DNA of 64,000 nucleotides from Mobula hypostoma. Taxonomy: Eukaryota. Both the position numbers and the translations under genes were made by a program. The stretch's first letter is position 1; every line of letters begins with the position of its first letter. Positions 3,021 to 62,569 of this stretch are shown here, in pieces. Under the pieces are notes generated by a model, which worked only from the letters and a program-made list of their open reading frames with translations, did not search any database and had not been told where the DNA came from. The stretch lies in assembly GCF_963921235.1 (NCBI RefSeq), contig NC_086108.1, forward strand, positions 8,556,001 to 8,620,000, given 5' to 3'.

Positions 3021-4374
3021 GTAACCAGGAACGTCTGACAATCCCGAAGCCATGAAAGACCCAAGCCCAGACTAGCTGCCCCTGTGGTGATGGAACTGTA
3101 GAAATTACGTGATATTGGTTCAGACTCTGAACAGGACCTTAAACAACATCTGATTCCCCATTCAGCACCCAAAATATCAGGAGTAAGCCAGCTAACTGCA
3201 GGAGCTGCTCGTCCTGGCGTCTCCTTTTATTGCCTCCAGTCACAGGTGGGACTTGGGACCTACCAACCTCCGATTCAGGCCAAGAGCCTGTGCCCCTCAG
3301 ACAGACCTGCAAGATCAGCTTGAGGGAGCTGTCTTTGGGTTCAGGGAGTGTGCATCTCCGGGACTGTCACAGAGAGGAGAATGCTGGGCACATTTGAATT
3401 GGAAACTTCAGGCTATAAATTTTGGGCTAGGCTGTGGGAAAGAAGTGGGTTGGAATGAGATCTTCCTGTGTTGTACGATACCAGAATTAACTGTCGGAGA
3501 TACCGAAGTGCTGGTTTGTGAACTATGGTTTAATGGACTCTGGATCAAAGTCTCTTTGGGGGCTTCTGTTGTTGCCTGCGTGGTGGGGATGCGGGGGTCA
3601 GTTCTGGTGCAGAGGGAGGGTGGCTGTTGTTTTTTGCTGCTGAATGTGTGTGGGGGGGTTAGAGTTCTGATGTTTTTATCATTCGTTCTATGGGGTTTGT
3701 TGTTCTGTGGATGTCTGTGAAGATTACGAATTCCAGGTTGTATACTATATACCTCCTCTGAATTAAAATGAACCTGTGAACGTGTTACGAACATTGTTTG
3801 TTCATCTCATTAGCTTGCGGTGTGTCTGCACTTGGGAATAGCTGTTCCCGGATCTGAGTGTTTTAAGGCAGCAGTTTCACTGTGCGCAGACCCTGGGAGA
3901 TTGGAAACCAGCGTTCTGACTGAGTTATTTCTGTGTGAGCACGTTAGGGACACTTTGCCAGGTGGCTTTAATTGCACAGGTCTTCACCAAGGCGTGCACA
4001 GCCCTTGCAGGAGTCAGAACTGAGACGTGCAGGTGTGCTGGCTGTAATGGGCATTCCGAAAGACAGCAGTTTTTTTGAAACGTTACGCTTCAGAGTCCTC
4101 TTGAGAGAGAATAACCTGTTTCTTTACCTGCGGTACCAAGTGTGAAGGAATTCAGGGTGAGAATCGGGGTTAATATCAGTGAGTGAGAGGTTGTTGTTGT
4201 GGCACCACTCAGCCAGATTTTCAATCTCCCTCCTATATGCTGATTTCATATCAGTGGTGTAGTGTACAGTGTGAAATTTGTGGCTTTGCGGCTGCAGTAC
4301 ATTGCAATACGTGAACTCTAAATTTTACAATAATATGTTTTTAAAATTTAAACTAACTAGTGTAAGATAGTAGT

Positions 4375-4511
4375 TAGTCCTGACGAAGGGTCTCGGCCTG
4401 AAACGTCGACTGCGCCTCTTCCTAGAGATGCTGCCTGGCCTGCTGCGTTCACCAGCAACTTTGATGTATGTTGCTTGAATTTCCAGCATCTGCAGAATTC
4501 CTGTTGTTTGC
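4375..4511 (+). mobile_element. Short Penelope-like element terminal fragment carrying a minimal hammerhead ribozyme
   Basis: 13-bp TSD GTAAGATAGTAGT at 4362-4374 and 4512-4524; the insert matches the tail of the GIY-YIG-coding PLE at 62478-62569. Confidence 0.85.
4376..4411 (+). ncRNA. Minimal type I hammerhead ribozyme motif (PLE-associated), intact core
   Basis: AGTC-CTGACGA-AGG(GTCTCGG)CCT-GAAAC-GTC-GACT: stem I AGTC/GACT, CUGANGA box, stem II AGG/CCT, GAAA box, palindromic ACGT in place of stem III. Predicted cleavage after C4407. Confidence 0.8.
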
Positions 4512-4539
4512 GTAAGATAGTAGTGGTTGCTTGTAGTAC

Positions 4540-4690
4540 GTGCAGATCACAAGTCTTGGTTATGTGACCACTGACGCCAGGCAGACAATCTCTGAAGAGT
4601 GTTGATAATGGCTGGGGTCACCCGTCTTGTAAAGGCACTGCCCAGAAGGCAATGGCAAACCACTTCTGTAGAAGAATCTGCCAAGAGCGC
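4540..4690 (+). mobile_element. RTE-related non-autonomous retroelement (SINE-like) fragment; related copies near 30065-30285, 37465-37740 plus 39721-39800, 40710-41070, 46300-47010, 53570-53880 (-) and 60855-61165
   Basis: Shared block GGTTATGTGACCACTGAC..GGCAGACAATCTCTGAAGAGT...GAAGGCAATGGCAAACCACTTCTGTAG, resembling the BovB/Bov-A GAAGGCAATGGCA.CCAC motif; fuller copies end in CATGATGATGA-like tails. Confidence 0.6.
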
Positions 4691-5174
4691 TGGTGCCCAT
4701 GATGGAGCTGACTGAGTTTACAACCCTCTGAAACTTTTTTCCAATCCTGTGCAGTGGCCCCACCATGCCAGATGGTAATGTAACCGGTCAGAAAGTTCTC
4801 CATGGTACATCTGTAGGAATTTATAAGAGGCTTTGTTGACATTCAGTTTGTATGCTCCTTTGTTTGTTACTTCAGAATCTGCCTTGCATCTGTAAAACTG
4901 GTTGAAATCTGAGCCATTTCCTGTCTGTTCATCATCATCTTCTCCCACTGACCAACACGGCATCTGCTTAACCAATCTCTCCATTTTAACATCTCACTCT
5001 CGTCTTCAACATTCCTTCTGCGTTTTATTTTAAACAGCTGATCAGACCAACCATTGCTCCGAGCAAGACACTTTTACACAGCCTGAAAACTGTGATGCAC
5101 TTTAAATGTTTTTTTGAAATATATGCATACTATGAATATTTAGACTGAAAATTGAAAAATTACATTATTTATTA

Positions 5175-5745: not shown

Positions 5746-5749
5746 ATAG

Positions 5750-6345
5750 CAAACAAGAGAAAATCTGCAGATGCTGGAAATCCAAGCAACACACACACAA
5801 CGCTGGAGGAACTCAGCAGCCCAGGCAGCATCTATGGAAAAAAAGTACAGTCGACGTTTTGGGCTGAGACCCTTCAGCAGGACTGGAGAACAAAAGATGA
5901 ATAGATTTAAAAGGTGGGGAGAGAGGAGGGAGAAACACAAGGTGATAGGTGAAACTGGGAGGGAGAGGGATGAAGTAAAGAGCTGGGAAGTTGATTGGTG
6001 AAAAAGATACAGGGCTGGAGAAGGAGGAATCTAATAGGAGAGGACAGAAGACCATGGAAGAAAGAAGAGGAAGGAGAAGCACCTGAGGGAGAAATTGGTG
6101 GGCAAGGAGATGAGGTGAGAGCAGGAAAAAGGGATGGGGAATAGTGAAGGGTGGGGGGAGGGGCATTACTGGAAATTCAAGAAATTGATGCTTAAGCCAT
6201 CAGGTTGGGGGCTACGCAGACGGAATATAAGGTGTTGTTCCTCCAACCTGAGTGTGACCTCATCATGACTGTGAAGGAGGCCATGGACGGACGTTTTGGA
6301 ATGGGAATGGAAAGTGGAATTAAAATGGGAAGTCCCGCTATTGGC
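5750..6345 (-). mobile_element. Penelope-like element 3' fragment (GIY-YIG C-terminus plus tail with a degenerate hammerhead at 5848-5885)
   Basis: Homologous to 62000-62570; the hammerhead core is mutated to CTGCTGA...AAAAC. Confidence 0.8.
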
Positions 6346-10985: not shown

Positions 10986-12589
10986 AGAATCCCAATCAGA
11001 GAAACAAGTTTTAGGGAGCAACTCGGAGGAGTAAAGGGATGTCAGGTTCCAACAGTTGAAGGCATGAAAGTTGAAAGTAAATTTATTATCAAAGTACATA
11101 TTTGTCACAATATACAACCCTGAGATTTGTTTAATTGCAGGCATACCCAAATACGTAATGGAATAGTAACTATAACAGAATCAATGAAACCGGGCCATGC
11201 TCTCTTCTCACTGCTGCCATCAGGTAGAAGGTACAAGAGCCTCAGGACTCGCATCAGCAGGTTCAGGAACGGTTACTACCCCTCAACCATCAGGCTCCTG
11301 AATCAAAGGGGATAACTTCACTCAATCCTATTTCTGGTGTTCCCACAACCAATAATCTCACTTTAAGGACTCTATCTCATTATCTCATGTTCTCGTTATT
11401 TATTTATATTTGAATTTTCACAGTTTGTTGTCCATTGATCCTGTTTACAGTTACTATTCCATAGATTTGCTGAGTATGCCCACAGGAAAATGAATCTCAG
11501 GGTTGTATGTGGTGACATGTATGTACTCTGGTAATAAATTTTGCTTTGAACTTTGAAAGACTGAACCAACTAGGGTGTTCAATCAGAGTGCAGAAGACAA
11601 CAACTTGTGCAAATACAAAAAGACAGAAATAATTTCTCCAGTTATAGAGTTTAAGCTGGGTGTGAACAAGACACCAGAACAGGAAGATTTCAGAGGTCTT
11701 GTGGGTTATAGACCCGGAAGAGGTTTTGTACCAAGGAAAGGGTGAGGCATGATTTGTAAACAAAATTGTGAATTCTGTGGGAAACACTTTGTTTATTAAA
11801 GCCATAACGAGTGTAGTTATTGTTCTATGCATGCATAATCCACACCCAGAATCTGAGTTTGTATCCGAGGAAGCTTCGGGACATCACAATAGCACGGCAG
11901 TTAGTATAACTCTTTACAGCGACTCGGGTCCAATTCTGCCACTGTCTTCATTGAGCTTGTGTGTTCTCTCCATGATGGATGGCATTGTTCTCCTCTGGGT
12001 GCTCTGCTTTCCTCCCACATTCCAAAGACATACAGTGAGGGTTAATAAGTTGTGGGCATGCTATGTTGGCACGGTGACAGTTGGCAGGCTGTCCCTCAGG
12101 ACATCTCCAGACTGTGTTGATCATTGGTGCAAATGACGCATTTCACTGTATGTTTCGATGTGCATGTGACAAATAAAGCTAATTTTAATATTTTTAGCAA
12201 ATGCTGGAGGAACTCACTGCGTCAGGCAGCATCTATGGAGGGGAATAAACAGTTGACGTTTCCGGCCAAGACCCTTCAAGTATTTGCTGAATCTCTTGTG
12301 TTTATGACCTGTGCTCTGTATTGCTTTGACAGTGAGTGCACTGTGCCTTTCCCCTCTCTTTTCCTCCCTCCCATCTCCGTCCCCCCACCCCCCACTCCAT
12401 CTCTCCTCTCTTTTACCTTCCCTGAGATGTGCACAGAGCCAGGTGAAACTGTGGAAGAAGTGTCAAGTGATTTAGTCTGTCATTCAGTGATTAAATGCAG
12501 TGGTTGTCTGTCATGTCTGTTGACAGCCAGAAACTTGTGCAGGAAAGTTTTCAAAGTGGAAAAGCTTAGCACTGGGGCAGTTCCACTCT

Positions 12590-12982: not shown

Positions 12983-14885
12983 CCCGTCCCCGGACACCAA
13001 ATGTGATCATATCTGACCAGATTCTACCTCTGCCTATATTCACACCACCGCTATAGTGTACAGATCTCAAACAATGACGAGTCGGCATGCAGGAAGGAGA
13101 TCAAGAGCCTAATGTGATGTTCCCCTCAAGGGTTATTCCTTTAATGGAGAACACCTGTGTGTGACTTTGTTTAACGTTGGGAGGCTGATGCACGGTCAAC
13201 CCCCACTCAGTCCTTGACAGATCAGGGTCAGAGTCCAGTGGCCTGGAATGGAAGACGACTGGTGACCCTTCCCTGCCTCAGCCTTCTGCCCCCTTTACTG
13301 CTGCTGTGATGTGTCAACATCTTCTGCCGGCTCCACCGTTGGGATTCGCTGTTTGGAGCCACCGCCGTGGGGCTAAGATCTATAAGCATTGTTCTTGGGG
13401 TCTCAGGAAATCACAAGCCTCTGCACCACAGCAAGGTAACGATCCTGAGAGAACTGCGGTAGCCTGGTGCCCAGACAGCACCCTTCAATGACGGCCCCAG
13501 GAAGAAGCTGGCCACTTCCCTCAGGAGTGGGTCACACTACACGCACCCATCTTATCAATGGTGCTGGCGTGAAATGGGGAGAGCAAGCTCTGAGGTGCAA
13601 GAATCAGCAGAAACATGTACATGCCCTGGCCAAGCGAGGCTACCAGCACCTCCACTTCCCCAGAAAGCTAAGGGAACACTTTTTTTTTCAAAAGTGTTGC
13701 TTCCTCAGAAGTTTTTTTTTGTTTCTGGTAGATCACTTGAAGCTGAACACAAATATAGTTTCAGGCTTCAGAATTCAGGGAGTAGGTGGGTGAACACTGA
13801 GAGAGTGAAGGAAGTCAGTACAAGGTCCCCCTGTGGCCATTCCCCTCAGTAACAGCTATACCCTCTTGGCTACTGCTGAGGGAGATGACCCATCCGGGCA
13901 GGGCAGCAGCAGCCAGACCAATAGCACTGTGGTCGGCTCTGAGCCTTGGAAAGGTAGGGTGAAGTCAGGTGGAACAATAGTCATAGGGGACTCGGTAGTT
14001 AGGGGGACAGATAGGGGATTCTGCGGCAGTAAAACAGACACCAGGATAATGTGTTGCCTCCCAGGTGCTAGAGTCCAGGATGTCTCCGAGCAGTTGCAGA
14101 ATATGCTGGAAGGGGAGGGTGAGCAACCAGAGGTCGTGGGTACACGTTGGTACCAAAGACATAGGCAGGGGACGGGTAGAGGGCCTGCACGCAGTGAGTT
14201 TAGGGAGTTAGGAAGGAGACTGAAGAGTAGGACCTCCAAGGTGGTGATCTCCGGATTACGCCCAGTGCCACCAGCTAGTGAAGATCAGAGCAAGGAGATA
14301 GTGCAGATGAATGAGTGTCTGAGGAGATGGTGCAGGGGACAGGGTTTCAAGTTCCTGGATCATGGGAACCTTTCTGGGGAAGGGGTGACCTGCACAAGTG
14401 GGACGGGTTGCACCTGAACTGGAGGGGAGCCAATATCCTGGGAGATAGGTTTGCTAATGCTATTGGGGAGGGTTTAAACTAGATTTGCAGGGGGGTGAGA
14501 ACTGAAGTGAAGAGGCAGAGGATGGTGTGGTTGACTCACAAGTAGAGACAGTTTGAAGGGAGTTTGTGAGGAAGGACAGGCAGATGATAGAGCAAAGGTA
14601 CACTCAGCCAGATGGTTTGAGATGTGTCTATTTTAATGCAAGGAGTATCATAAGCAAGGTGGGTGAACTTAGAGCATCGATCAATATGTGGAACTATGAT
14701 ATGGCCATTACAGAGACTTGGAATAGCTGCTGAGTGTGTTGGGCTTTAGATGTTTCAAAAAAAGAACAGGGAGGGAGGCAAAAGAGGTGGGGGAGTAGCA
14801 TTGCTAATCAGGGATAGTATCATGGCTACAGAAAAGGAGGAAGTAATGGAGGGATTGTGAGAAACAGGAAGGATACAATAACTCT

Positions 14886-15108
14886 CGCAAATACGAGGAA
14901 TTCTGCAGATGCTGGAAATTCAAGCAACACACATCAAAGTTGCTGGTGAACGCAGCAGGCCAGGCAGCATCTCTAGGAAGAGGTACAGTCTACGTTTTGG
15001 GCCGAGGCCCTTTGTCTGATGAAGGGTCTCGGCCCGAAACGTCGACTGTACCTCTTCCTAGAGATGCTGCCTGGCCTGCTGCGTTCACCAGCAACTTTTA
15101 TGTGTGTT
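14886..15108. mobile_element. Tail-to-tail inverted PLE terminal insertion inside the CR1 endonuclease region
   Basis: 14-bp TSD GATACAATAACTCT at 14872-14885 and 15109-15122; the insert is a hairpin of two opposite PLE tails meeting near 15015. Confidence 0.9.
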
Positions 15109-16092
15109 GATACAATAACTCTACTGGGTTTTTTATAGACTCCCCCCAATAGTAACAGAGACATCGAGGAGCAGGTAGGGAGGCAGATTCTGGAAAGGTG
15201 CAATAATAATAGGGTTGTTGTGATGGGTGATTTTAACTTTCCTAATATTGACTGGGATCTCCTTAGAGCAAAGGGTTTGGATGGGGTGGAGTTTGTTAGG
15301 TGTGTTCAGGAAGATTTCCTAACGCAATATGTAGGTAAGCCAACTAGAGGAGAGGCTGTAGTTGATCTGATATTGGGAAATGAACCTGGTCAGGTGTCAG
15401 GTCTCTCAGTGGGAGAGCATTTTGGAGATAGCGATCACAACTCTATCTCCTTCACTGTAGTGCTGGAGAGGGATAGGAGCAGAAAATTTGGGAAAACATT
15501 TAATTGGGATGGGGGGAAATATGATCCTATTGGGTAGGAACTTGGGAACATAACTTGGGGGTAGATGTTCTCTGGGAAATGCATGGCAGAAAAGTAGAAA
15601 ATGTTCAGGGAATATTTGCAATGTTCCATTGAGGCAGGGGAAGGATGGTAGGGGTAAAAGAGCCAAGGTTACAAAGGATCAAGAAAATCTAATTAAGAAC
15701 AAAAGAAAAGCTTACAAAAGGTTCAAGACGCTAGGTACTGTTAGAGCTCTAGGAAATTACAAGGGTGCCAGGAAGGAGCACAAGAATGAAATTAGGGGAG
15801 CTAGACGGGGACCTGCGCAGGCCTTGGTGAGCAAGATTCAGGAAAACCCCAAGGCATTGCAGAAGTATGTGAAGGGCAGGAGGATAAGTCATGTTAGAAT
15901 AGAACCAGTCGGGAGTAAGAGTGGAAACATGCTGGAGCCGGAGGAGGTAGCGGAGGTTACTTAATGAATACTTTGCTGCAGTATTTACCAGTGAAAAGGA
16001 ATAGTGGGGATGACTTAAAGCAGACTGAAACACTTGAGTGTGTAGACATTAAGAAAGAGGATGTGCTGGAGCTTTTGAAAAGCATTAAGATG

Positions 16093-17718
16093 CAGTGGAA
16101 TGCAAAAGTTTAAGCACCCCTGGTCTAAATTTCTGTAACTGTGAATAGCTAAGCGAGCAAAAGATGAACTGATTTCCAAAAGGCATAAGGTTAAAGATGA
16201 CACATTTCTTTAATATGTTAAGCAAGAAAACTTTTTTATTTCCATCTTTTACAGTTTCAAAATAATAAAAAAGGAAAAGGGCCTGAAGCAAAAGTTTGAG
16301 CACCTTGCATGGTCAGTACTTAGCAACACCCCCTTTGGCAAGTATCACAGCTTGTAAACGCTTTCTGCAGCCAGCTAGGATTCTTTCAATTCTTGTTTGG
16401 GGGATTTTCGCCCATTCTTCCTTGCAAAAGGCTTCTAGTTCTGTGAGATTCTTGGGCTGTCTTGTATGCACTTCTCTTTTGAGGTCTATCCACAGATTCT
16501 CGATGATGTTTAGGTCAGGGGACTGTGAGGGCCATGGCAAAACCTTCAGTTTGCGTCTCTTGAGGTAGTCCATTGTGGATTTTGAGGTGTGTTTAGGTTC
16601 ATTATCCTGTTGTAGAAGCCATCCTTTTTTTATCTTCGACTTTTTTTTTACAGATGGTGTGATGTTTGCTTCCAGAATTTGCTGGTACTTAATTGAATTC
16701 ATTCTTCCCTCTACCAGTGAAATGTTCCCTGTGCCACTGGCTGCAACACAAGCCCAAAACATGATCGATCCACCCCTGTGCTTAACAGTTGGAGAGGTGT
16801 TCTTTTCATAAAATTCTGCACCCTTTTTTCTCAAAACATACCTTTGCTCATTGTGGCCAAAAAGTTCTATTCAGAAGGTTCAAAGGAACATCTAAACAAG
16901 CTTGATGCATTTTGGAAACAAGTCCTGTGGACTGATGAAGTTAAAATAGAACTTTTTGGCCACAATGAGCAAAGGTATGTTTGGAGAAAAAAGGGTGCAG
17001 AATTTCATGAAAGGAACACCTCTCCAACTGTTAAGCACGGGAGTGGATCGATCATGCTTTGGGCTTGTGTTGCAGCCTGTGGCACGGGGAACATTTCACT
17101 GGTAGAGGGAAGAATGAATTCAATTAAATACCAGCAAATTCTGGAAGTAAACATCACACCGACTGTAAATAAAAAAGCTGAAGATGAAAAGAGGATGGAT
17201 CCTACAACAGGATAATGATCCTAAACACACCTCAAAATCCACAATGGACTACCTCAAGAGGTGCAAGCTGAAGGTTTTGCCATGGCCCTCACAATCCCCT
17301 GACCTAAACATCATTGAGAATCTGTGGATAGACCTCAAAAGAGCAGTGCATGCAAGGCAGCCCAAGAATCTCACAGAACTAGAAGCCTTTTGCAAAGAAG
17401 AATGGGAGAAAATCCCCCAAACAAGAACTGAAAGACTCTTAGCTGGCTACAGAGAGCATTTACAAGCTGTGATACTTGCCCAAGGGGGTGTTACTAAGTA
17501 CTGCCATGCATTGTGCCCAAACCTTTGCTTTGGGCCCTTTTCCTTTTTTGTTATTTTGAAACTGTAAAAGATGGAAATAACAAAATTTTCTTAAAGTATT
17601 AAAGAAATGTGTCATCTTTAACTTTATGCCTTTTGGAAATCAGGTCATCTTTTACTCGCTTAGCTATTCACAGTAACAGAAATTTTGACCAGGGGTGCTC
17701 AAACTTTTGCATGCCACT
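16093..17718. mobile_element. Tc1 (DD34E, IR/DR type) foldback derivative made of two inverted 3' halves of the transposon
   Basis: Ends CAGTGGAATGCAAAAGTTT ... AAACTTTTGCATGCCACT(TA); internal DR GCAAAAGTTTGAGCACC near 16288; transposase pieces on minus (16313-16870) and plus (16880-17500) strands with WTDE, QQDND and SPDLNIIE, 34 residues between the second D and E. Confidence 0.92.
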
Positions 17719-28020: not shown

Positions 28021-29107
28021 CTGGCTGCTCCCAGCTTCGTGTCTGAGGACTCACTTTCAGTCTAAATGCTATCTGCTCATTTTGTTGTTTGCACGATTTG
28101 TTTTTTTTCCTCTCTGTCTCCACACATTGGGCGCTTGTCGTTTTTTTTTATGGGTTCTTTTGTGTTTCTTTGTTTTGTGGCTGCCTGTAAGGAGACAAAT
28201 CCCAAGATTGTATAGTGTATACATGAATCGATAATAAATGTACTTTGAACTTTAAGGGACTGAGTTCATTGGCTCAGGAGACCTTCACGATAAGAATAAG
28301 GTTTAATGTCACTGGCGTAGTTTGTGAAATTTGTTAACTTTGCAGCAGCTGTGCAATGCAGTTCGTAATAACAGAGAAAAAACTGAATTACAGTAAGTGT
28401 GTGTAGATATGCTTTTAAATATATAGATAGCTAGATTTTAATAAAAGTAGTGCAGAAATAATTTTTTAAAAAAAGTTGTGAGGTAGTGTTCATGGGTTCG
28501 ATGTCCATTCAGAAATCTGACGGCAGAGGGGAAGAAGTTGTTCCTGGCTCGTTGAGTGTGTGCCTTCAGGCTCCTGTACCTCCTCCCTGATGAGAAGAAG
28601 GCATGTCCTGGGTGCTGGGGGCCCTTAATGATGGATGCTGCCTTTTTGCGGCATCGCTTCTTGGGGATTGCTCTGGATACTGAATCGTGAGAATATCTGT
28701 GACCAGTATCTCAACCTAGTTCAGTGATCTTGTCAAGGGCAGGGCAGGAAGCCCTCAGAGTTGCTGCTCTTTACCCAGGTCCTGGAGGGACTAACCTTCG
28801 TACCAGGATATGTCCTGAACCTGCTCAACAGGTCCTGTACGTTACTGATTGAGAAATACTGCGTGGAAGTAGGGCTGTGCCTACCCTACCCTGCCCAACC
28901 TGTTTGGTGTGAATGGAAACACCGCGATGACGCTAGACGGCGAGATAAGGAGATGAAAGAGCCTTTTTGACCTTTCTCTCTACCCAGGAGAGCTTCTGAT
29001 TCTCTTATTTGACCAATTTCAAACCAAAGTTCGCTTGTCTTTCATGGTCTGCAATGAATGGAAGACTTGTATTTCTCTCTCTGTTGAGTACCTTCACTCA
29101 AAAAAAA

Positions 29108-32864: not shown

Positions 32865-33022
32865 CAACACACATCAAAGTTGCTGGTGAATGCAGCAGGC
32901 CAGGCAGCATCTCTAGGAAGAGGTACGGTCAACGTTTCAGGCCGAGACCCTTCATCAGGACTCTTCACCAGCAACTTTGATGTGTGTTGCTTGAATTTCC
33001 AGCATCTGCAGAATTCCTCGTG
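32865..33022. mobile_element. Inverted PLE terminal insertion with an intact-core hammerhead on the minus strand (32927-32962)
   Basis: 14-bp TSD TCTCCTATATCTGT at 32851-32864 and 33023-33036; minus strand reads AGTC CTGATGA AGG..CCT GAAAC GTT GAC. Confidence 0.85.
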
Positions 33023-33174
33023 TCTCCTATATCTGTGTTCTGTTCTGGTCACCTCCATTACAGGAAGGATGCGGAAGCTTTGGGGAGGGCGCAGAGGAGA
33101 TCTATCAGGATGCTGCCTGGATTAGAGAGCATGTCTTATCAGGGATCAACTTTATTAGATAGTAGCATAACAGA

Positions 33175-45004: not shown

Positions 45005-45394
45005 TAAACACACGAGATTCTACAGATGCTGGAAATCCAAAACAAACAAACACACACACACATATATGGAGAGGAATAAGCAGAAAACATTTCAGACAGA
45101 CCTTTCATCACAGGGTTTCCCTACTGTTTTTATGTCATTAAGCAAGCGGTCCATTGTCCCCAGTGTGGGAGCCCCCGTTTCACCAGGACAGCAGAGCTTA
45201 TAACATAGTTCATACACAATTATTAGAAGAAAGAATAAAAGAGGTCAGTTGCAGTGTAAAGTGGTGGTAGTGTTCCTGTACTGTGGTTGTGATTAGAGTT
45301 GTACTGACTGGTTCAGGAACCTGATGGGTGAAGGGAAGCAGCTGTACTTTAACCTGGTGGTGTGGGGCTTCAGGCTTCTTGCCACTGCTACATC

Positions 45395-45865
45395 CACCAA
45401 ATGCGGAACTCCCTGGTGGCCAGGATATTTCAATTCTCATCCCCGTTCTGACGTGTCGGTCCATGGTCTCCTCTTGTGCCAGGATGAGGCCACCCTCAGC
45501 GTGGAGGAGCAACACATTATATTCCATCTGAGTAGCCTCATGAAAAAAAAATCCCCCTCCCCTCCTCTTCTATTCCCCACTCTGGTCTCTTAGCTCTTCT
45601 CATCTGCCTATCACCTCCAATGGGTCCCCTCCTTCCTTTTCTCCTATGGTCCGCACTCCTATCATTCCTTCCTCTCCAGCTGTTGACCTTTTCCAATCAC
45701 CTTTTAGCTCACCCCTCCTTTTTATTCTGGTATCTCCCCCCCCCCGCCTTCTTTTCCAGTCCTGATGAAGGGCCTCGGCCCGAGATGTCAACTGTTGATT
45801 TGTTTCCATCGGTGCTGCCTGGCCTGCTGAGTTTCTCCAGCATTTTGTGTGCGTTGCTCTGGCTG
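45395..45865 (+). mobile_element. Penelope-like element 3' fragment with a degenerate hammerhead at 45757-45794
   Basis: FNSHPRSDVSVHGLLLCQDEATLSVEEQHIIFHL; CAGTCCTGATGAAGGGCCTCGGCCCGAGATGTCAACTG. Confidence 0.8.
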
Positions 45866-49805: not shown

Positions 49806-50570
49806 AATTAACTCTGGCCCACCCCTGGCTCTCACTTAGACTAAACCGAACTAACTGAGACAAGGCGAGAATGTGCAACTCTACCCCCTCACATCTACCA
49901 CGCGAGCGCCCCAACCCACGTGTCTAACTGCCCTTAATAAACGCACAACGCAAAATGCAATTCAATCAGAAAGTGGCCCCCCACCAAGGAGCAAAGAGAT
50001 CCGTGTGGCGGGAGAGCAGAACCTCGGCGCGTCATGGGCCATGGCTTCACCACTCCAGACGGATGCCCCTGAGGGAGCGCTGCGCCGTCAGGGGTGCCTT
50101 CACCGCGCTAGTCAAAGGTTGCTCAGGTGGGTGAATCTAAGTCAAAGACAAAATTAGTTTATTATTAAAGTACATTTAATACCCTGAGATTCACTTTCTT
50201 GTGGGCATTCACAGTAAATACGAAGAAACACAATAGAATCAATGATTTTTTATTTCTATTTTTGCACTGCTTATTTAATTTAACAACTTATATATAAATA
50301 TTTACTGTAATTCAGTTTTTTCTATTATATATTGCATTGTACCGATGCCACATAACAACAAATTTCACGATATATGCTGGTGATATTAAATCTGATTCTG
50401 AAAATCCACCCACAACAAAAGCAGACAATCAACAAATATACAAAAGACAACAAACTGTGCAAATACAAAAATAACCGTTAATAAATATCAAGTACCTGAC
50501 TTCAGTTCTTAGAAATGAGCCCATAGTTTGTGAAATCCGTTCAGTGTTGAAGTGAGTGAGGTTGTCCATG

Positions 50571-51300
50571 CTGGTTCAGGAGCCTGATGGTTGTGGGGTA
50601 ATAACTGTTCCTGAACCTGGTGGTGTGGGACCTGAGGCTCATTGTGGTGAGTGAAGTTATCCACACTGGTTCAGGAGCCTGATGGTTGTGGGGTAATAAC
50701 TGTTCCTGAACCTGGTGGTGTAGGACCTGAGGCTCATTGTGGGGAGTGAAGTTATCCACACTGGTTCAGGAGCCTGATGTTTGTGGGGTAATAACTGTTC
50801 CTGAACCTGGTGGTGTGGGACCTGAGGCTCATTGTGGTGAGTGAAGTTATCCACACTGGTTCAGGAGCCTGACGGTTGTGGGGTAATAACTGTTCCTGAA
50901 CCTGGTGGTGTGGGACCTGAGGCTCATTGTGGTGAGTGAAGTTATCCACACTGGTTCAGGACCCTGATGGTTGTGGGGTAATAACTGTTCCTGAACCTGG
51001 TGGTGTGGGACCTGAGGCTCATTGTGGTGAGTGAAGTTATCCACACTGGTTCAGGAGCCTGATGGTTGAGGGGGTAATAACTGTTCCTGAACCTGGTGGT
51101 GTGGGACCTGAGGCTCATTGTGGTGAGTGAAGTTATCCACACTGGTTCAGGAGCCTGACGGTTGTGGGGTAATAACTGTTCCTGAACCTGGTGGTGTGGG
51201 ACCTGAGGCTCATTGTGGTGAGTGAAGTTATCCACACTGGTTCAGGACCCTGATGGTTGTGGGGTAATAACTGTTCCTGAACCTGGTGGTGTGGGACCTA
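50571..51300 (-). repeat. 95-bp tandem array (~7.7 copies) derived from a Rex1/Babar-type LINE 3' end
   Basis: CTGGTTCAGGA unit starts at 50571, 50666, 50761, 50856, 50951, 51046, 51142 and 51237; unit encodes SLRSHTTRFRNSYYPTTIRLLNQ. Confidence 0.95.
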
Positions 51301-54300
51301 GGGCTCCTGTACCTCCTGCTCAATGGCAACAGCGAGAAGAGAATATGGCCTACGGGTGGGATCCCTCACAGAGGGATCAGAAGTGGAGAGAGTGAACAGC
51401 TTCAAATTTCTGGGTGTCAAGATCTCTGAGGATCTAACCTGGTCCCAACATATTGATATAGTTGTAAAGAAGGCAGGACAGTGACTATACTTTATTAGGA
51501 GTTTGAAGAGATTTGGCATGTCAACAAATACACTCAAAAACTAATATAGATGTACTGTGGAAAGCATTCTGACTGGCTGTGTCACTATCTGATATGGGGG
51601 GAGGGCTACTCCACAGGACCGAAAGAAGCTGCAGAGGGTTGTAAATTTAGTCAGCTCCATCTTGGGTACTCGCCTACAAAGTACCCAGGACATCTTTAGG
51701 GAGCAGTGTCTCAGAAAGGCAGCGTCCATTATTAAAGACCTCCAATGCCCAGGGCATGTCCTTTTCTCACTGTTACCATCAGGTAGGAGATACAGAAGCC
51801 TGAAGGCACACACTCAGCGATTCAGGAACAACTTCTTCCCCTCTGCCATCCGATTCCTAAATGGACATTGAACTCATGAACACTACCTCACCTTTTTTAA
51901 TATATAGTATTTATGTCTTTGCACAATTTTTATTCTATTTAATATGCATATACTGAAATTGATTTAATTATTTTATTTTACTTTTTTCTTCTCTATTATG
52001 TATTTCATTGAACCGCTGCTGTTAAGTTAACAAATTTCACAACACGTGCCAGTGATAATAAGCCTGATTCTGATGGATGCTGCTTTCCTGTGACAGCTCT
52101 CCATGTAGATGTGTTCAGTAGATGTGTGGAGGGCTTTACCCGTGATGGTTTATCAGGGGCATAAAAAATATTGTTAGCCTACTAAGGAAGCAGAGGTCCG
52201 TTCATTATCATGGTGTAAGGCATAACGGCAGGGCTCTTAAACTAAATGAGGATTCCAAATTGAGTCATAAAGTTCAAACTACATTTATTATCAAAGTGTG
52301 TGTGTGTGTGTGTGTGAATATATAAACAACCTTGAGATTTGTCTTCTTGCAGACAGCCACAAAACAAAGAAACACCATAGAATCCATTTGAAGAAAAGCC
52401 CCACAGAACAAGATCATCAGACAAGCGACTTTAAAAGAAAAGAACAAATCGCACACACAGCAAAGGCAAACGAATACCACACAAAACATTAAACCTCAAA
52501 CTTCCCCAAGTGTGAGTCCAAAGCTGTGAGCCGCTGAGGCTGTAAAGCCAGTCAGTTCAGCACTATGTCGATAGCTTCACAGCCGTAGGTCCAGTTTCGC
52601 GCTGAAGCGCCTTGATCAAATTGTGCAAATTGTAAAGAACATTCAGCACTGAACACATAAAACATTAAAGCAGAGATGAAAATGAGTCCACAGCCATGAG
52701 TCTCTGAGACAATCAGATCTTGCAGTGCGAGGCCCAAGAGTCCTGCACCTTCCGCCAGCAGCAGCGAGGGAGACCGGTCAAACATGGGCAGACGGTGCTG
52801 AGCACTCGTTCATTTCCCACTCTCGTGCTCGTCGATTTTAACCTTGCTCGACACTTTAATTGGCGGGGGACAACGGTGCCAACCACAGGCTCGTATTCCG
52901 CCATTAGGAATCAACGCAGCATGCACCCCCATCAAAGGCCAGAGCTGCACTCCCCGCCGAATCCCCCAGGAGATCACAAAAGCGTCAGATCGTTCCGTTG
53001 GCCAAAAATACACTCTTAAAAGGGAAATTACAGGTTGTAATTAATCTCAGCTCAGAAATATACCTAGAGGAAGAAGAGTATCCGGTAGTTTTGTAAGCTG
53101 TCTGCAAGATGTCGCAGCAGTCACTCGTGCCATCCTACCAGAAGCATTTGAAAGATGACTGTGATTAAACAGTTGGACAGGAAGCTTCCCCCTGGGGCTG
53201 AGCAGTGACAGAGGTCCCAGAACGGAATGGCATGAAACGTAACTCTCCATGAGCCAGGGATCATTTGCCTGAGTTTTCCCATAATCCATGTCCCGTGTAC
53301 CGCCGGAGCCTGATGATTGTAGAGTGATCGCTGTGGCCATTCCTGCCACTGTTTGAAAGGTGTCGTGCTCTGGTTTGCTGCCACATCCTAAAGACGTGCA
53401 GGGTTAGGCCTAGTCAGTTGTGGGCCTGCTCCGTTGGCACTGGAAACGTGGTGACACTTGTAGGCTGCCCAGCACATCCTCGCACTGTGTTGGTCATCGA
53501 TGCAAAACGATGCGTTTCACTTTGTTTCAATGTGCGTGGGACAAATAAAACTAATCTTGAAGTTTGCTCATTGTATGACGTGGGCGATCATAGTCTTACC
53601 CATGACCACGGTTGGTCTTGGCAAGTTTTTCTACAGAAGTGGTTTGCCATGGCCTTCTGGGCAGTGTCCTTACAAGACCGGTGACCCCAGCCATTAGCAA
53701 TACTCTTCAGAGTTTGTCTGCCTAAAGGACTTGTGATCTGCACCATCCCCCACCTGCTCCCAAGGCTTCACGTTACCTGCTCGGGGGGGGGAGGGGAGGG
53801 GGGGGCTAAGCAGGTGCTACACCTGCCCATGGGTGACCTGCAGGCTAGCGGTCAGTGGTAGTGCTGTATCTCCACTCCACCACCCTAGTCTTGAAGGGAG
53901 AAGGATTGAAGATTAAACCAAGGCTATTGAAGGGTGCTGAGAGGAACCAGTCAGTGCAACAGAGTGTGGAGACAGGGAGGTGAGAGACGGGTGTAAGGGG
54001 CTTTCCCTGAGGTGGGTGGAGTCCCTCTTAATGTTATGGATAATTTTGTCAAAGGCAGGTGAATGGTGTTAGGATAGGTCTGATGGGCTGAATGGTATCC
54101 ACATGTACTAGTATGAAGGACCGCAACCATCATGTGGCCTCTCCCAGTAAGGAAAGGCATTTGGAATTCTCCCTCCATCTGCCTCATTTATTCTTTTCTT
54201 TGAAAGCGTTGCCTGACTGTAATCAGAATCAGGTTTAACATCACCGGGTTATGTAGTGAAATTTGGTGTCTTTGTGGCAGCTGTACATGATAAAAGAGAA

Positions 54301-54774: not shown

Positions 54775-55275
54775 GCACAAAATGCAGGGGAAACTCAGAC
54801 CAGGGAACACAGACACGATGCTGGGGGAAACTCAGACCAGAGAACACACACAAAATGCAGGGGAGACTCAGACCAGAGAACACACACAAAATGCAGGGGA
54901 GACTCAGACCAGAGAACACACACAAAATGCAGGGGAGACTCAGACCAGAGAACACACACAAAATGCAGGGGAGACTCAGACCAGAGAACACACACATAAT
55001 GCTGGGGGAAACTCAGGTCAGAAGACACACACACAGTGCTGGGGGAGACAGACCAGAGAACGCACACAAAATGCTGGGGGAAACTCAGATCAGAAAACAC
55101 ACACAAAATGCAGGAGAGACTCAGACCAGAAAACGCACCCAAAGTGCAGGAGGAACACAGAGCAGGGAACACACACAAAACGCAGGGGAGACTCAGAGCA
55201 GAGAACACACACAAAATGCAGGAGAGACTCAGACCGGAGAAGACACACAAAATGCAGGAGAGACTCAGCAGGCCA
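54775..55275 (+). repeat. ~34-bp tandem array derived from the PLE terminus
   Basis: Unit ACACACAAAATGCAGGGGAGACTCAGACCAGAGA runs directly into ACTCAGCAGGCCAGGCATCATCTATGGA, the reverse-oriented PLE tail. Confidence 0.9.
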
Positions 55276-56310
55276 GGCATCATCTATGGATATGAATAGC
55301 CAGTCGACATTTCAGGCAGAGACTCAATCAGGACTGGAAAGGTGCCAGAGTAAAACGGCTGGAGGAGAGGGGTAGAAGTCTAGCTAGATTGGGGGAGATT
55401 CTGCGGAGGCTGGAGTTTTAGAGTAATGTACACACAGTGCTGGAGGAACTCAGCAGCTCAGGCAGCATCTATGGAGGGGAATAAGTTGTCGACATTTCAG
55501 GCCAAGTCCCTTCAGCGGGACTGGAAAGGAAGGGGAAGACACCAGAACAATTTGTTAGGGAGAGGGAAGGAGAACAAGCTGGCAGGTGATAGATGTGAAG
55601 CAAGGTGAGCGAGAAGGTGGGGGGGGGGTGGAGGATGAAGTAAGAAGCTGCAAGTGGAAAAGGTAAAGGACTGTTAGGAGAGGACAGTAGACGTGGGAGA
55701 AAGGGAAGGAGGCCTGGCACCAGAGGGAGTGATGGGCAGGTGGGAAGAGAAAGAGCGAGAGTGGAGATGGAATTGAGAAGGAGAGAAGGGAGAAAGGTTG
55801 GGGAAATCGATGTTCATGCTATCAAATTAGCGTCTACTCAGATTGTGAAGTATTACTCCTCCAACCTGAGTGTGGCCTCATTGTGGCAGTAGAGGAGATC
55901 GTGGACTGATGTGTCACAATGGGAATGGGGAATGGATTGGCCATCAGGAAATTCTCCCTGGTGTGGTGGACAGAGAAAAGATGCTGGTAAAGCGATTCCC
56001 CCCAATCTACGCAACCCAGACAGGCTCACAAGTGAAGTGCCGCCTCAGCTGGAAGGACTGTTTGAAGCCCTGAATGGTGGTGAGGGAAGAGTTGTAGGGG
56101 TAGCTTTAGCACTTGTCCCACTTGCAGGGATAAGTGCCAGGAGGGAGATCAGTGGGGCTGGGACGTGAGAACAAGGGAGTCACGTAGAGTTAGATCCCTG
56201 CACAAAGCAGGCCCCTTCCATTCCAGTCCTGTTGAAAGTTATCGGCCCACAGTATTGACCCACTTATCTGCCTGGCCTGCTGAGTTCCTCTTGCACTTTG
56301 TGTGTATGTG
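55250..56310 (-). mobile_element. Decayed Penelope-like element pieces (mostly minus strand; short plus-strand tail at the right end)
   Basis: Two PLE tails with degenerate hammerhead motifs near 55300-55337 and 55485-55524, followed by GIY-YIG-region homology to 61780-62190. Confidence 0.7.
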
Positions 56311-58677: not shown

Positions 58678-59238
58678 CTCAGGTCCCACACCACCAGGTT
58701 CAGGAACAGTTATTACCCCTCAACCATCAGGCTCCTGAACCAGTGTGGATAACTTCACTCACCACAATGAGCCTCAGGTCCCACACCACCAGGTTCAGGA
58801 ACAGTTATCACCCCACAACCATCAGGCTCCTGAACCAGTGTGGATAACTTCACTCAGCACAATGAGCCTCAGGTCCCACACCACCAGGTTCAGGAACAGT
58901 TATCACCCCACAACCATCAGGCTCCTGAACCAGTGTGGATAACTTCACTCCCCACAATGAGCCTCAGGTCCCACACCACCAGGTTCAGGAAAAGTTATTA
59001 TCCCTCAACCATCAGGCTCCTGAACCAGTGTGGATAACTTCACTCCCCACAATGAGCCTCAGGTCCCACACCACCAGGTTCAGGAACAGTTATCACCCCA
59101 CAACCATCAGGCTCCTGAACCAGTGTGGATAACTTCACTCCCCACAATGAGCCTCAGGTCCCACACCACCAGGTTCAGGAACAATTATTACCCCACAACC
59201 ATCAGCCTCCTGAACCAGTGTGGATAACTTCACTCACC
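58678..59238 (+). repeat. 95-bp tandem array (~5.9 copies), same unit as 50571-51300 in the opposite orientation
   Basis: CTCAGGTCCCACACCACC at 58678, 58773, 58868, 58963, 59058 and 59153. Confidence 0.95.
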
Positions 59239-59739
59239 TCAACTCTGAACTGATTCCACAACCTATGGACTCACTTCCAAGCACTCTGCACCTCTTGTTC
59301 TCAGTATTATTTATATTTTATTTGCTCAGTTTTCATACATACTCTTGCTTTTCTTAGAAATACAGCACAGTAACCGCCGAATTATACTCGTGACCAATTC
59401 ACGAAATAACCGGTATGTGTCTGGACTGTGGGAGGAAACCAGAGCACCCAGAGGAAACCCTTGTGGTCACGGGGAAAACGTAAAAAATCCTTGCCACTGC
59501 GGCAAGAATTGAACCTGGGTGGCTGGTGCTGTCATAACATTGAGCTGACTGCTGTGCTTTTTTTTTCTGTAAATGCCTGCAAAAAGAATTGAATCTCCGG
59601 GTCATACATGGTAACGCCAATGTACGTTAATAATTGATTTACTTTGACTTTGGATGGAACTGGAAGGGCCATGAGGTGCGGGACCAAGGACCTAGTGCTG
59701 GTAGAAGGTGATTAGGCTGGGCAAATCCATTGCCCCAAA

Positions 59740-60480
59740 ACAGAACGTAGAACATTACACCATAGGACAGGCCACTGGCCCCACAGTGTTGTGCTGAATC
59801 AGCTAAAAAGCAAATCAAAAATCCCCAAACACTAATCCCTCCTACATACACCATGTCCATATCCCTCCATCCTCCACAGGCCTATCCAAACATCTCTTAA
59901 AAAGACTCTGATATATTTACCTCTACTGCCATACCAGCCAGTGCATTCCAGGCACCTACTACCTCTGAGTAAAAAACTTACCCCTCACATCCCTCTTGAA
60001 CCTACCCCTCTCACCTTCAATGCATGCCCTCTGGTATTAGACATTTCAACCCTGGGAAACAGATACTCCCTGTCCACTCTATCTATGCCTCTCATAATCT
60101 TATAAATCTCTGTCAGATCTTCCCTCAGCCCAGCCGCTCCAGAGAAAGCACCCCACAGTATGTCCAGCCTCTCGTGATAACACATGCCCTCTAAACCAGG
60201 CAGCATCCTGGTAAACCTCTCCTGCACCCTCTCCAAAGCCTCAACATCCTTGCTATAGTGGGGCAACTAGAATTGTAATATAAGACTCCAGATGTGGCCT
60301 AACCAGAGTTTTATAAAGTTGCAACATAACCTCTTGAGTTTTGAACTCAATGCCTTGACTAGTAAGAGCAAGTATTCCATGAGCCTCCTTAACCATTTTG
60401 AGCCATGCAGCCATATTCAAGGAGCTATGAGCTTGGACCCCAAGATCTCTCTGCTCAGCAACACTGTTAAGGGTCTTGCC
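59740..60480 (-). mobile_element. CR1 LINE 3' fragment
   Basis: EQRDLGVQAHSSL...LYKTLVRPHLE...PHYSKDVEALERVQERFTRMLPGLEG...TRGHALKV. Confidence 0.85.
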
Positions 60481-61174
60481 CAAATGGCCTTGATTGCCTC
60501 CAGGCTCAAGAACAGTTTCTGTCCCGCTGGTGTCAGACCCCTGATTGGACCTTTTGTACAATAATATTGATGCTTGGCCTGACAATCTCCCTCATTATGA
60601 TCTTGCACTTTATCGTTTACCTGCATTGCACTCAGCCTGAAATGTCGACTGCTTATCATTTCCATCAATGCTGCCTGACCTGCTGAGTTCCTCCAGTGTT
60701 TTGTGTGTGTTGCTCAAGATTTACGACATCTGCCACATCTCTATTGTGTGCGATGCTGTTGATTGACCTTATTGTCTACCAACACTGTACTTTCTCTCCA
60801 GCTGTAGTACTTTATTCTGATTTCTGATGTTGTTTCTCCTTGTACTGATTCTGAGTGGTGGGGTGGAGTACCAAAGGAAGTGTAAGGTGCTCCTTCCCTC
60901 TGCTAACCTGCCCGTCACCCTTGGGCAAGATGTAGCACCTGCTTAGCCTTAGCCCCACCCCGATCTGGGTCACGTGATGCCATAGGAGCAAGTGGTGGAT
61001 GGTCGTATGAGCAGCCGGTGCATATCACAAATCCTGGTTATGTGACCACTGCCACCAGGCAGACAATCTCAGAAGAGTATTGATAATGGCTGGGGTCACC
61101 CGTCTTGCAAAGACACTGCCCAGAAGAAGGCAGTGGCAAGCCACTTCCTCAGAAAAGTGTTGCCAACAAGACCC

Positions 61175-62569
61175 TTCAGGCCGAGACCCTTCGTCAGGAC
61201 TAACTGAAGGAAGAGTGAGTAAGGGATTTGAAAGTTGGAGGGGGAGGGGGAGATCCAAAATGATAGGAGAAGACAGGAGGGGGAGGGATAGAGCCGAGAG
61301 CTGGACAGGTTATAGGCAAAAGGGAATACGAGAGGATCATGGGACAGGAGGTCCGGGAAGAAAGACAGGGGGAGGTGACTCAGAGGATGGGCAAGAGGTA
61401 TATTCAGAGGAAGAAAAAGGAGAGTGAGAGAAAGAATGTGTGCATAAAAATGAGTAACAGATGGGGTACGAGGGGGAGGTGGGGCCTTAGCAGAAGTTAG
61501 AGAAGTCGATGTTCATGCCATCAGGTTGGAGGCTACCCAGACGGAATATAAGGTGTTGTTCCTCCAACCTGAGTGTGGCTTCATCTCCACAGTAGAGGAG
61601 GCCGTGGACAGACATGTCAGAATGGGAATGGGATGTGGAATTAAAATGTGTGGCCACTGGGAGATCCTGCTGTCAGAATGGGAACGGGATGTGGAATTAA
61701 AATGTGTGGCCACTGGGAGATCCTGCTACACAACTCCCTTGTCCATTCGTCCCCCCCATCCCTCCCCACTGATCTTCCTCCTGGCACTTATCCGTGTAAG
61801 CGGAACAAGTGCTACACATGCCCTTACACTTCCTCCCTTACCACCATTCAGGGCCCCAAACAGTCGAGGCATCACTTCACCTGTGAGTCGACTGGGGTGA
61901 TATACTGCGTCCGGTGCTCCCGATGTGGCCTTTTATATATTGGTGAGACCCGACGCAGACTGGGAGACCGCTTTGCTGAACATCTACGCTCTGTCCGCCA
62001 GAGAAAGCAGGATCTCCCAGTGGCCACACATTTTAATTCCACATCCCATTCCCATTCTGACATGTCTGTCCACGGCCTCCTCTACTGTGGAGATGAAGCC
62101 ACACTCAGGTTGGAGGAACAACACCTTATATTGCGTCTGGGTAGCCTCCAACCTGATGGCATGAACATCGACTTCTCTAACTTCCGCTAAGGCCCCACCT
62201 CCCCCTCGTACCCCATCTGTTACTCATTTTTATGCACACATTCTTTCTCTCACTCTCCTTTTTCTCCCTCTGAATATACCTCTTGCCCATCCTCTGGGTC
62301 ACCCCCCCCCTTGTCTTTCTTCCCGGACCTCCTGTCCCATGATCCTCTCATATCCCCTTTTGCCTATCACCTGTCCAGCTCTTGGCTCTATCCCTCCCCC
62401 TCCTGTCTTCTCCTATCATTTTGGATCTCCCCCTCCCCCTCCAACTTTCAAATCCCTTACTCACTCTTCCTTCAGTTAGTCCTGACGAAGGGTCTCGGCC
62501 TGAAACGTCGACTGCACCTCTTTCTATAGATGCTGCTTGGCCTGCTGCGTTCACCAGCAACTTTGATGT
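61175..62569. mobile_element. Young Penelope-like element with a long 5' inversion; GIY-YIG endonuclease remnant at about 61730-62190 (+)
   Basis: GTYPCKRNKCYTC...FTCESTGVIYCVRCSRCGLLYIGETRRRLGDRFAEH...PVATHFN...LEEQHLILRLGSLQPDGMN; 61175-61670 is the reverse complement of about 62007-62505. Confidence 0.92.
62478..62513 (+). ncRNA. Minimal type I hammerhead ribozyme motif, intact core
   Basis: AGTC-CTGACGA-AGG(GTCTCGG)CCT-GAAAC-GTC-GACT, identical to 4376-4411. Predicted cleavage after C62509. Confidence 0.8.

Follow-up and report, generated by a model that had tools for sequence, protein, structure and literature searches.

The window analysed here (64,000 nt of myliobatiform ray DNA) holds the start of a gene followed by dispersed hammerhead motifs, and the question it raises is whether these motifs cut the pre-mRNA of that gene. 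An earlier note on this DNA had proposed that two identical intact copies, both in the sense orientation, could self-cleave or pair through their palindromes and so cut intron 1. We assign a probability of about 0.88 to a different reading, namely that the motifs are minimal hammerheads in truncated 3′ ends of Penelope-like elements (PLEs) inserted after exon 1 of ppp1r14ab, and that they are inert passengers which do not cut the host pre-mRNA.

The host gene and the motif copies

The peptide encoded by exon 1 of ppp1r14ab matches Pfam PF05361 (E = 2.4e-15), and its residues are the same as those of a ray protein (P0001) over 57 of 57 amino acids, and likewise as the start of a Mobula protein (P0009). 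Residues 58–124 have no match in the window, and no later exon lies inside it. We infer that the window sequence 3′ of exon 1 is intron 1 of ppp1r14ab, an intron status that, beyond the window, presupposes a correct assembly. Every hammerhead motif lies 3′ of this exon and, as the earlier note had it, both intact copies are sense to the PPP1R14A-family gene.

BLAST and alignment identified 16 hammerhead-bearing segments, whole or partial, at 12 insertion loci of the window (Table 1). The motif was found at every place named previously, while two segments, 14985–15022(−) and 34071–34108(−), had been overlooked. A degenerate 36-nt family pattern gave six matches at ≤3 mismatches versus 0.00 expected (100 dinucleotide shuffles), and a 38-mer scan gave 14 matches at ≤14 mismatches versus 0–1 per shuffle (20 mononucleotide shuffles). 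Chance matches are thereby ruled out, as the shuffles give nothing comparable. The search for known hammerhead families that had been suggested yielded nothing of the kind: of the six matches that Rfam 15 gave in the window at E ≤ 1, none is to a hammerhead family and all are to miRNA models. The mir-2 matches at 32865–32989 reflect the inverted insertion present there.

Table 1. Exon 1, PLE fragments and hammerhead motifs in the window
Positions	Strand	Feature	Details
2206–2376	+	Coding exon 1 of ppp1r14ab (PPP1R14A/CPI-17 family)	GT donor next, at 2377
4362–4524	+	Solo PLE 3′ end, ~4375–4511	13-bp target-site duplications 4362–4374, 4512–4524
4375–4412	+	Complete minimal hammerhead	C17 at 4407
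5749–6333	−	PLE 3′ fragment: endonuclease remnant, 3′ UTR, degenerate hammerhead, long tail	Hammerhead 5848–5885(−): A6>C, G12>A
12203–12278	−	5′-truncated PLE end without CUGANGA box	
14872–15122	.	Head-to-head inverted PLE pair 14887–15109	14-bp duplication 14872–14885, 15109–15122; long end on minus arm, short end on plus arm
29099–29707	+	PLE 3′ fragment with endonuclease remnant	Hammerhead 29583–29620: A14>G, stem II broken
32851–33036	.	Inverted PLE insertion 32865–33023	14-bp duplication 32851–32864, 33023–33036; hammerhead 32926–32963(−)
34024–34108	−	Degenerate hammerhead and tail	
36682–37425	.	Inverted PLE pair, second subfamily	Hammerheads 36739–36776(−), 37306–37343(+), both palindromes broken; endonuclease remnant 36877–37038(+)
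45006–45861	.	PLE fragment	Inverted tail piece 45006–45058(−); endonuclease remnant 45426–45542(+); hammerhead 45757–45794(+) with A14>G
55240–56157	−	Partial tandem, two degenerate hammerheads (55486–55523, ~55300–55335)	Endonuclease remnant 55856–56156
60631–60751	+	5′-truncated PLE end	Only substrate half of hammerhead left
61175–61674	−	Inverted arm of 61175–62571 insertion	Hammerhead ends after GAA; 97.6% complementary to sense arm over 502 nt
61720–62187	+	PF01541 match	E 3e-4, 21.4 bits, under 22.6 cut-off
62477–62514	+	Second complete minimal hammerhead	C17 at 62509; element end near 62571

A position-by-position audit covered 15 of the 16 segments; the copy at 55300–55335, which carries a 2-nt deletion, was read by eye. 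Most window copies are decayed. All 11 audited core positions (CUGANGA ... GAAA ... UH) are intact in 6 of the 15 audited segments, the ACGU palindrome is present in 8, both complete copies among them, and only 2 of the 16, those at 4376 and 62478, retain core, palindrome and stem I together. The copy at 32927–32962(−), described before as having an intact core, indeed keeps the 11 core positions; with U17 and a stem I of only 3 bp, it nevertheless departs from the motif given earlier. Likewise, the motif is present at 36775(−) and 37307(+), but "near-intact" was too generous for copies that have lost the palindrome (ACAU and AUGU, respectively) and the first stem I pair, whereas the copy at 15016(+), called degenerate or truncated, has its core but is missing the 5′ side of stem I. 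Seven segments are sense and nine antisense to the gene, without orientation bias (p = 0.80).

In the alignment of the window copies (A1), 80.8% of stem cells are paired versus 15–47% when the alignment is slid, and the extra nucleotide A13 is invariant. Of the 11 distinct rows, 6 have G-C at the 10.1–11.1 pair and 5 have G-U. Stem covariation among the copies had been raised as a test; double-sided (compensatory) changes occur at 0 of 9 pairs among these 11 closely related rows, and covariation appears only across distant metagenome groups.

The copies at 4376–4411 and 62478–62513 are both complete and have the same sequence, and their C17 falls at 4407 and 62509, as claimed. The first consists of a stem I of four Watson-Crick pairs and one G-U, the core CUGACGA (4380–4386) followed by the extra A, a 4-bp stem II closed by G-U, GAAA (4400–4403) and the palindrome ACGU (4403–4406). 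In both, stem I has 5 bp, all audited core positions are kept and stem II is closed by G10.1-U11.1, possibly a product of CpG decay. They differ at 4 of 98 shared nucleotides, none of them in the 40-nt motif, an identity that is weak evidence of selection as judged from the sequences, since it would arise by chance with P ~0.12. That the host has domesticated one intact copy as a conserved regulatory element is extremely improbable: domesticated intronic hammerheads are known in amniotes (PMC6155905) and the two copies are identical over the motif, but this identity fits chance and both lie inside recognisable insertions of a high-copy subfamily. Amniote hammerheads such as that of RECK are also type I and intronic, but they are canonical and conserved, whereas the ray motifs have no monomer helix III and sit in decaying high-copy insertions (PMC6155905).

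The element that carries the motifs

The earlier assignment to minimal type I hammerheads at PLE termini holds, as the motifs have no loop III and 6 of the 12 loci retain an endonuclease remnant upstream in the same orientation. The GIY-YIG endonuclease of the window is C-terminal and has a CxxC between GIY and YIG, and the linker before it carries CX4CxxC in the window peptide and in relatives. Judged from these endonuclease and linker features, which do not separate the two clades, the endonuclease appears to be of the Neptune/Nematis type. Neptune and Nematis EN+ elements (Craig et al., 2021, PMC8557442) share the C-terminal GIY-YIG domain, the CX2-5CxxC linker and the CxxC between GIY and YIG, as well as 5′ truncation, inverted arms and a one-sided tail of 30–40 bp; unlike them, the ray window has 3′ fragments only, and no intact PLE open reading frame was seen in it. 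A reverse transcriptase (RT) precedes the endonuclease in three of six scanned relatives (P0016, P0026 and P0031), where the RVT_1 matches are weak and below cut-off and the motif RYIDD is visible in the alignment (A2). The link to a PLE-type RT comes from these relatives.

Target-site duplications of 13–14 bp flank three of nine loci examined, the other six having matches of 6–8 nt at most, or none. The inverted pairs at 14887–15109, 32865–33023 and 36682–37425 have one long and one short end, which agrees with the 30–40 bp tail of Neptune and Nematis (PMC8557442) and with the two RT start sites of PAc, a Poseidon element of Anolis (Frangieh et al., 2024, PMC11167929). Loci of this kind, where the target site is duplicated and one inverted end is long and the other short, are clean genomic records of PLE integration. 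PAc also has its hammerhead slightly 5′ of the genomic ends and two end points; its start sites lie 85–92 nt past the cut site, compared with ray ends at ~66 and 104 nt, and the Poseidon clade has no linker zinc finger, unlike the ray element (PMC11167929). Copies of the subfamily that includes the complete motifs differ by 1–6 of 58 tail bases.

The class has been known since 2014, and the ray copies are ordinary members of it. The minimal hammerheads (min-HHR) that Cervera and de la Pena (2014, PMC4209133) described in metazoan PLEs are type I without loop III, with palindromic 15.1–16.1, an extra nucleotide between A9 and 10.1 and a helix I of 4–5 bp, and they occur mostly as dispersed singles with some close opposite-strand pairs, as in the ray. 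The differences are the ray host, the 4-bp stem II (7–8 in Schistosoma) and the G-U at 10.1–11.1 of the two complete copies; the first half of the text and two supplementary files contain no shark, skate or ray terms. Non-LTR retrozymes (Li et al., 2026, bioRxiv 10.64898/2026.07.22.740005) likewise carry type I hammerheads, associated with the terminal repeats of PLEs, and are reported from one chondrichthyan genome. They are tandem arrays with a hammerhead per unit, whereas the ray copies are dispersed or inverted and half of the loci have endonuclease sequence. A retrozyme array was rejected, as none of 21 TRF rows is a hammerhead-bearing tandem array and the sole partial tandem (55240–55523), which holds the only close same-strand hammerhead pair, is antisense to the gene and has both cores broken.

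Relatives in metagenomes and sequencing runs

Metagenome contigs carry the same architecture (132 matches in 41 stem II groups), with 2.12 of 4 Watson-Crick pairs in stem I versus 1.11 when shuffled (0 of 5000 shuffles as high). A related RT-endonuclease match lies in the fetched flank of 11 of the 132, for example L017.

Contigs from 4 of 23 listed runs (two DNA, two probable RNA) were compared over a 601-nt stretch; the run search listed none that is recorded as RNA. The comparison gave no site at which molecules start or stop in numbers, although contigs are unable to reveal such ends. At least ~1e5 and at least ~9e4 contigs fall on it in the two DNA runs, and ~7,000 in each of the probable RNA runs, with summed depth highest over the PLE part. 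Summed motif depth is 4e5–2e6 times that of the unique flank, or 1e4–5e4 times allowing ≤31-fold contig overlap, which is not a copy number. The probable-RNA/DNA depth ratio rises ~1.5–2 fold 3′ of C4407 (0.052 to 0.07–0.10 and 0.032 to 0.04–0.05); contig depth cannot rank the parts, and we count this neither for nor against cleavage. In the DNA runs, CpG decay affects 7–11% of contig depth at C15.2, G16.2 and G1.1, 7–10% at C17 and 7–16% at a tail CpG, values that are contig-based and weak. Core CpG changes reach 2–5% in the probable RNA runs versus 7–11% in DNA, which is also counted neither way. Positions 4376–4403 have no listed differences even where window copies vary, probably through an edge rule, and there is no empty-site joint among the 15 joints listed of 107.

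Cleavage of the element and of the host pre-mRNA

By analogy with relatives, the motif of an active element would cleave that element's tandem RNA after C17, which would require two copies paired through ACGU and stem I, probably aided by the protein of the element. Reverse transcription may begin ~66 or 104 nt beyond the cut site on its 3′ side, with RNA that is uncut or has been re-joined as template. With such a start, the hammerhead would be copied early and outlast 5′ truncation, and this would explain how common the motif is.

In the host pre-mRNA, the sense copies are instead predicted to fold as closed hairpins or to pair with nearby antisense arms. Since C15.2 adjoins G16.2, helix III cannot form within one copy, and monomer cleavage is ruled out by this geometry. 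The proposal that the copies at 4376 and 62478 self-cleave or pair via ACGU, cutting intron 1 enough to affect ppp1r14ab expression, is very improbable. In its favour, both copies are sense and keep core, palindrome and a stem I of 5 bp, amniotes have conserved canonical hammerheads in introns, and a fast hammerhead engineered into a zebrafish intron lowers mRNA up to 20-fold (PMC11856399); in the same study, however, the fast ribozymes N79, N107 and N117 gave <3-fold knockdown from an intron. A distance of 58.1 kb separates the two copies. Predicted nearest-neighbour energies, which leave out Mg2+, tertiary core contacts and proteins, put the active homodimer 11.5 kcal/mol higher than two monomers and 18.8 kcal/mol higher than the best inactive dimer. 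The two copies also carry G-U instead of the G10.1-C11.1 pair, which is termed highly conserved in the min-HHR paper (PMC4209133); 120 of the 132 metagenome matches have C at 11.1. Moreover, folding predictions pair both intact copies with antisense PLE arms in their vicinity, and stems I and II each have a predicted probability of 0.00 in the four sense copies folded with antisense neighbours. Transcription passes the antisense arm of 62478 before it reaches that copy (predicted pairing at P ~1), while the 4376 copy is transcribed ~1.4 kb ahead of its predicted partner, the 5749–6333(−) fragment, leaving a brief free interval.

Relatives described in the literature show no activity as monomers, act slowly as dimers or depend on the element's protein; the Anolis PLE hammerhead cleaves only with its own protein, and no reads end at its site (PMC11167929). 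Where present, PLE protein together with abundant PLE RNAs might use stem I and ACGU to pair with intronic copies, slowly cutting pre-mRNAs at many sites, C4407 included; in favour of this, the family is very abundant in the run contigs. We regard this as quite unlikely. The nearest enzyme/substrate pair in the window (62478 with 60631, 1.9 kb apart) is predicted at +6.2 kcal/mol, the copies have no strand bias, the window lacks a visible intact PLE reading frame, and CpG decay in the core is not below that of the tolerated C17 and overlaps that of the tail. A broader version, in which ray and shark introns hold very many dimer-dependent hammerheads, a Penelope protein, where expressed, could chaperone abundant element RNA onto intronic copies and cut pre-mRNAs in trans genome-wide, again including C4407, and inverted arms would be a host shield, is quite unlikely.

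The reading of the copies as inert passengers has observations against it: both complete copies are sense (n = 2), and the family must cut somehow if the core is retained across subfamilies. In Xenopus, introns contain fewer related retrozymes than expected, a hint that some of these are harmful. Cutting of host pre-mRNA, if true, would be a new cost of PLEs to their hosts, and the abundance of the motifs in long ray introns would allow a well-powered in vivo cleavage test of sense versus antisense and intact versus broken copies.

Hammerhead motifs and the element that carries them

By combining BLAST, a Hamming scan and alignment, we located 12 loci with 16 hammerhead-bearing segments in the window, with a motif at each position named in the earlier note. 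A degenerate 36-nt pattern gave six matches with at most three mismatches in the window and none in 100 dinucleotide shuffles; no hammerhead family match was obtained in the window with Rfam 15. Hammerhead positions are numbered by the standard scheme. The motif consists, in order, of the 5′ strand of stem I, CUGAYGA, one extra A, a 4-bp stem II, GAA, ACGU, the cut-site base C17 and the 3′ strand of stem I; because C15.2 adjoins G16.2, helix III is possible only between two molecules. A position-by-position audit covered 15 of the 16 segments, and the copy at 55300-55335, which has a 2-nt deletion, was read by eye. All 11 audited core positions are intact in six of the 15 segments, and only 4376(+) and 62478(+), named by their start positions and sense to ppp1r14ab, combine the full core with the ACGU palindrome and a 5-bp stem I. 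The motif observation of the earlier note is thereby confirmed with small corrections: the 32962(-) copy, described as having an intact core, carries U17 and a 3-bp stem I, and the 36775(-) and 37307(+) copies, described as near-intact, have both lost the palindrome.

This motif is the min-HHR, a minimal type I hammerhead without loop III, as defined in the available text of Cervera and de la Pena (PMC4209133). Unlike the G10.1-C11.1 pair highly conserved in min-HHRs according to the same text, both complete window copies carry G-U there; among 11 distinct window rows the pair is G-C in six and G-U in five. Double-sided (compensatory) changes were found in none of nine pairs among the window copies, as expected of recent copies decaying after insertion.

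A GIY-YIG reading frame stops about 290 nt upstream of the 62478 motif (E 3e-4, just under the Pfam cut-off), and same-strand endonuclease remnants lie 5′ of the hammerhead at 6/12 loci. The closest relatives of the endonuclease peptide are ray proteins (78-91% identity), followed by whale shark and invertebrate proteins (31 matches), and a weak RVT_1 match precedes the endonuclease in three of the six relatives scanned. These remnants and relatives support the earlier assignment of the carriers to Penelope-like elements (PLEs). A C-terminal endonuclease with a CX4CxxC linker and a CxxC separating GIY from YIG fits the Neptune/Nematis definition in the accessible sections of PMC8557442; judged from these peptide features, the carrier would be a PLE of this type. 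PLE endonuclease sequence is also included in five ray or shark gene models that bear host gene names (mucin-2, DIPK1C, RTP3-like, CHID1; P0013, P0014, P0020, P0022 and P0036), probably as annotation carry-over.

Relatives and abundance of the family

Scanning two of 64 parts of the metagenome contigs with the core pattern yielded 123 loci and 132 matches. Over 41 stem II groups, stem I showed 2.12 of 4 Watson-Crick pairs (1.11 when shuffled) and stem II positions 3-4 showed 1.12 of 2 (0.52 when shuffled), with 0/5000 shuffles as high in either case; in this test the core is fixed by the pattern, the groups are non-independent and chance matches are possible among the 132. C11.1 is present in 120/132 matches, and a related RT-endonuclease match lies in the fetched flank of 11/132; at one contig locus, L017, an open 456-aa frame stops about 130 nt ahead of the motif. 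Since the metagenome matches pair in stems more than shuffled ones and some lie near RT-endonuclease sequence, the hammerhead-PLE architecture is a conserved feature of these elements. In the literature searched, which lacked Repbase, the majority of subscription papers and the supplements of bioRxiv preprints, where the family may be listed, we found no description of this PLE hammerhead family in rays. The combination of hammerhead ribozymes, shark and Penelope retrieved only PMC6155905, where "shark" is a fold name in the text available; the accessible part of a ray genome preprint (10.1101/2025.06.08.657570) makes no mention of PLEs, and that of a retrozyme preprint covers one chondrichthyan (10.64898/2026.07.22.740005).

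Four contig sets, from a list of runs among which none is recorded as RNA, were aligned to 4100-4700. About 1e5 and 9e4 DNA contigs cover this region and are deepest where the PLE lies, evidence of a very abundant PLE family though no measure of copy number. CpG sites decay by mutation. In DNA runs, CpG changes at C15.2, G16.2, C17 and G1.1 reach 7-11% of depth, overlapping the 7-16% of a tail CpG; by these weak contig data, damaging changes show no sign of being rarer.

Sense copies in the ppp1r14ab transcript

Exon 1 (2206-2376) matches PF05361, and its 57-aa peptide has identical counterparts in ppp1r14ab from Hypanus sabinus and Hemitrygon akajei; the Mobula protein begins with it too. These identities make a myliobatiform ray the likely host. 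The host gene (PPP1R14A family) and motif orientation given previously were right. Residues 58-124 were not found in the window, and 2377-64000 is therefore inferred to be intron 1.

In favour of the proposal that the complete copies would cut this intron are the sense orientation of both and, according to the available text of 10.64898/2026.07.22.740005, the depletion of related retrozymes in Xenopus introns. However, ViennaRNA predictions, which leave out Mg2+, tertiary contacts and proteins, make such cutting of the pre-mRNA unlikely. The isolated 38-mer is predicted as a closed hairpin with a mispaired core, the active homodimer is disfavoured by 11.5 kcal/mol relative to two monomers and by 18.8 kcal/mol relative to the best dimer, P(stem I) is ≤0.01 with 30-150 nt of flank added, and the nearest enzyme/substrate pair, 62478 with segment 60631, is predicted at +6.2 kcal/mol. 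The sense copies are instead predicted to pair with antisense arms: 62478 with its own inverted arm (61175-61205), transcribed earlier, 4376 with the antisense copy 5849-5884, although 4376 has a short free interval before this partner is transcribed, and 37307 and 15012 with their arms. Folded with their neighbours, all four have predicted stem I and stem II probabilities of 0.00. In the accessible parts of the sources, single min-HHRs are uncleaved while dimers and trimers cleave at low level (PMC4209133), one of nine retrozyme dimers tested cleaved (10.64898/2026.07.22.740005), and the Anolis motif requires its protein, with zero reads ending at the site (PMC11167929). For zebrafish introns, the available text reports a 20-fold knockdown by an engineered fast ribozyme and <3-fold by three others (PMC11856399). 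Seven segments are sense and nine antisense (p=0.80; inverted arms are non-independent).

At 4424, A>G changes amount to 15% in both probable-RNA runs and 2% in DNA runs, and at 4426 to about 5% and 1-2%; for both sites RNA status is guessed and individuals differ. ADAR prefers the UAG context, which is that of 4424, and the excess at the two positions could reflect A-to-I editing of fold-back PLE RNA.

Insertion structure and neighbouring repeats

Target-site duplications of 13-14 bp were found at three of nine loci examined. Three inverted pairs combine an arm with a short end point and an arm with a long one, and in both first-subfamily pairs 33-38 nt separate the two points. In the accessible sections of the respective papers, these ends match the one-sided 30-40 bp tail of PLEs (PMC8557442) and the two RT start sites of the Anolis element (PMC11167929). 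Both nicked DNA strands would prime reverse transcription, from different start sites, giving inverted insertions with long and short ends. PLE copies reach 5′ of C17, so the templates would have been uncut or re-joined, which agrees with unprocessed RNA being the main substrate of the Anolis PLE in the text available (PMC11167929).

PLE insertions with 13-14 bp duplications (two of the three are inverted and have a long and a short end) and other repeats in the window
Position	Feature	Remarks
4362-4524	PLE insertion	13-14 bp duplication
14872-15122	PLE insertion	13-14 bp duplication
32851-33036	PLE insertion	13-14 bp duplication
2488-2973	GC-rich 28-nt minisatellite	just 3′ of exon 1
4525-4688, 40808-41011, 60963-61166	high-copy repeat	adjoins both insertions bearing a complete hammerhead; end presumably resembles an RTE-type 3′ end
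16314-17503	near-perfect 1.2-kb palindrome	reading frames, which we take to resemble the C-terminal part of Tc1-type transposase
37879-39279(-)	466-aa open frame, RVT_1 domain (E 1.7e-23)	probable non-LTR retrotransposon with no relation to PLEs
50552-51306, 58678-59242	95-nt tandem arrays	one unit in opposite orientations, separated by about 7.6 kb; 570 nt with 95% complementarity
54776-55268	36-nt tandem array, about 13.6 copies	immediately continues the tail of PLE copy 55240-55342(-), which it resembles
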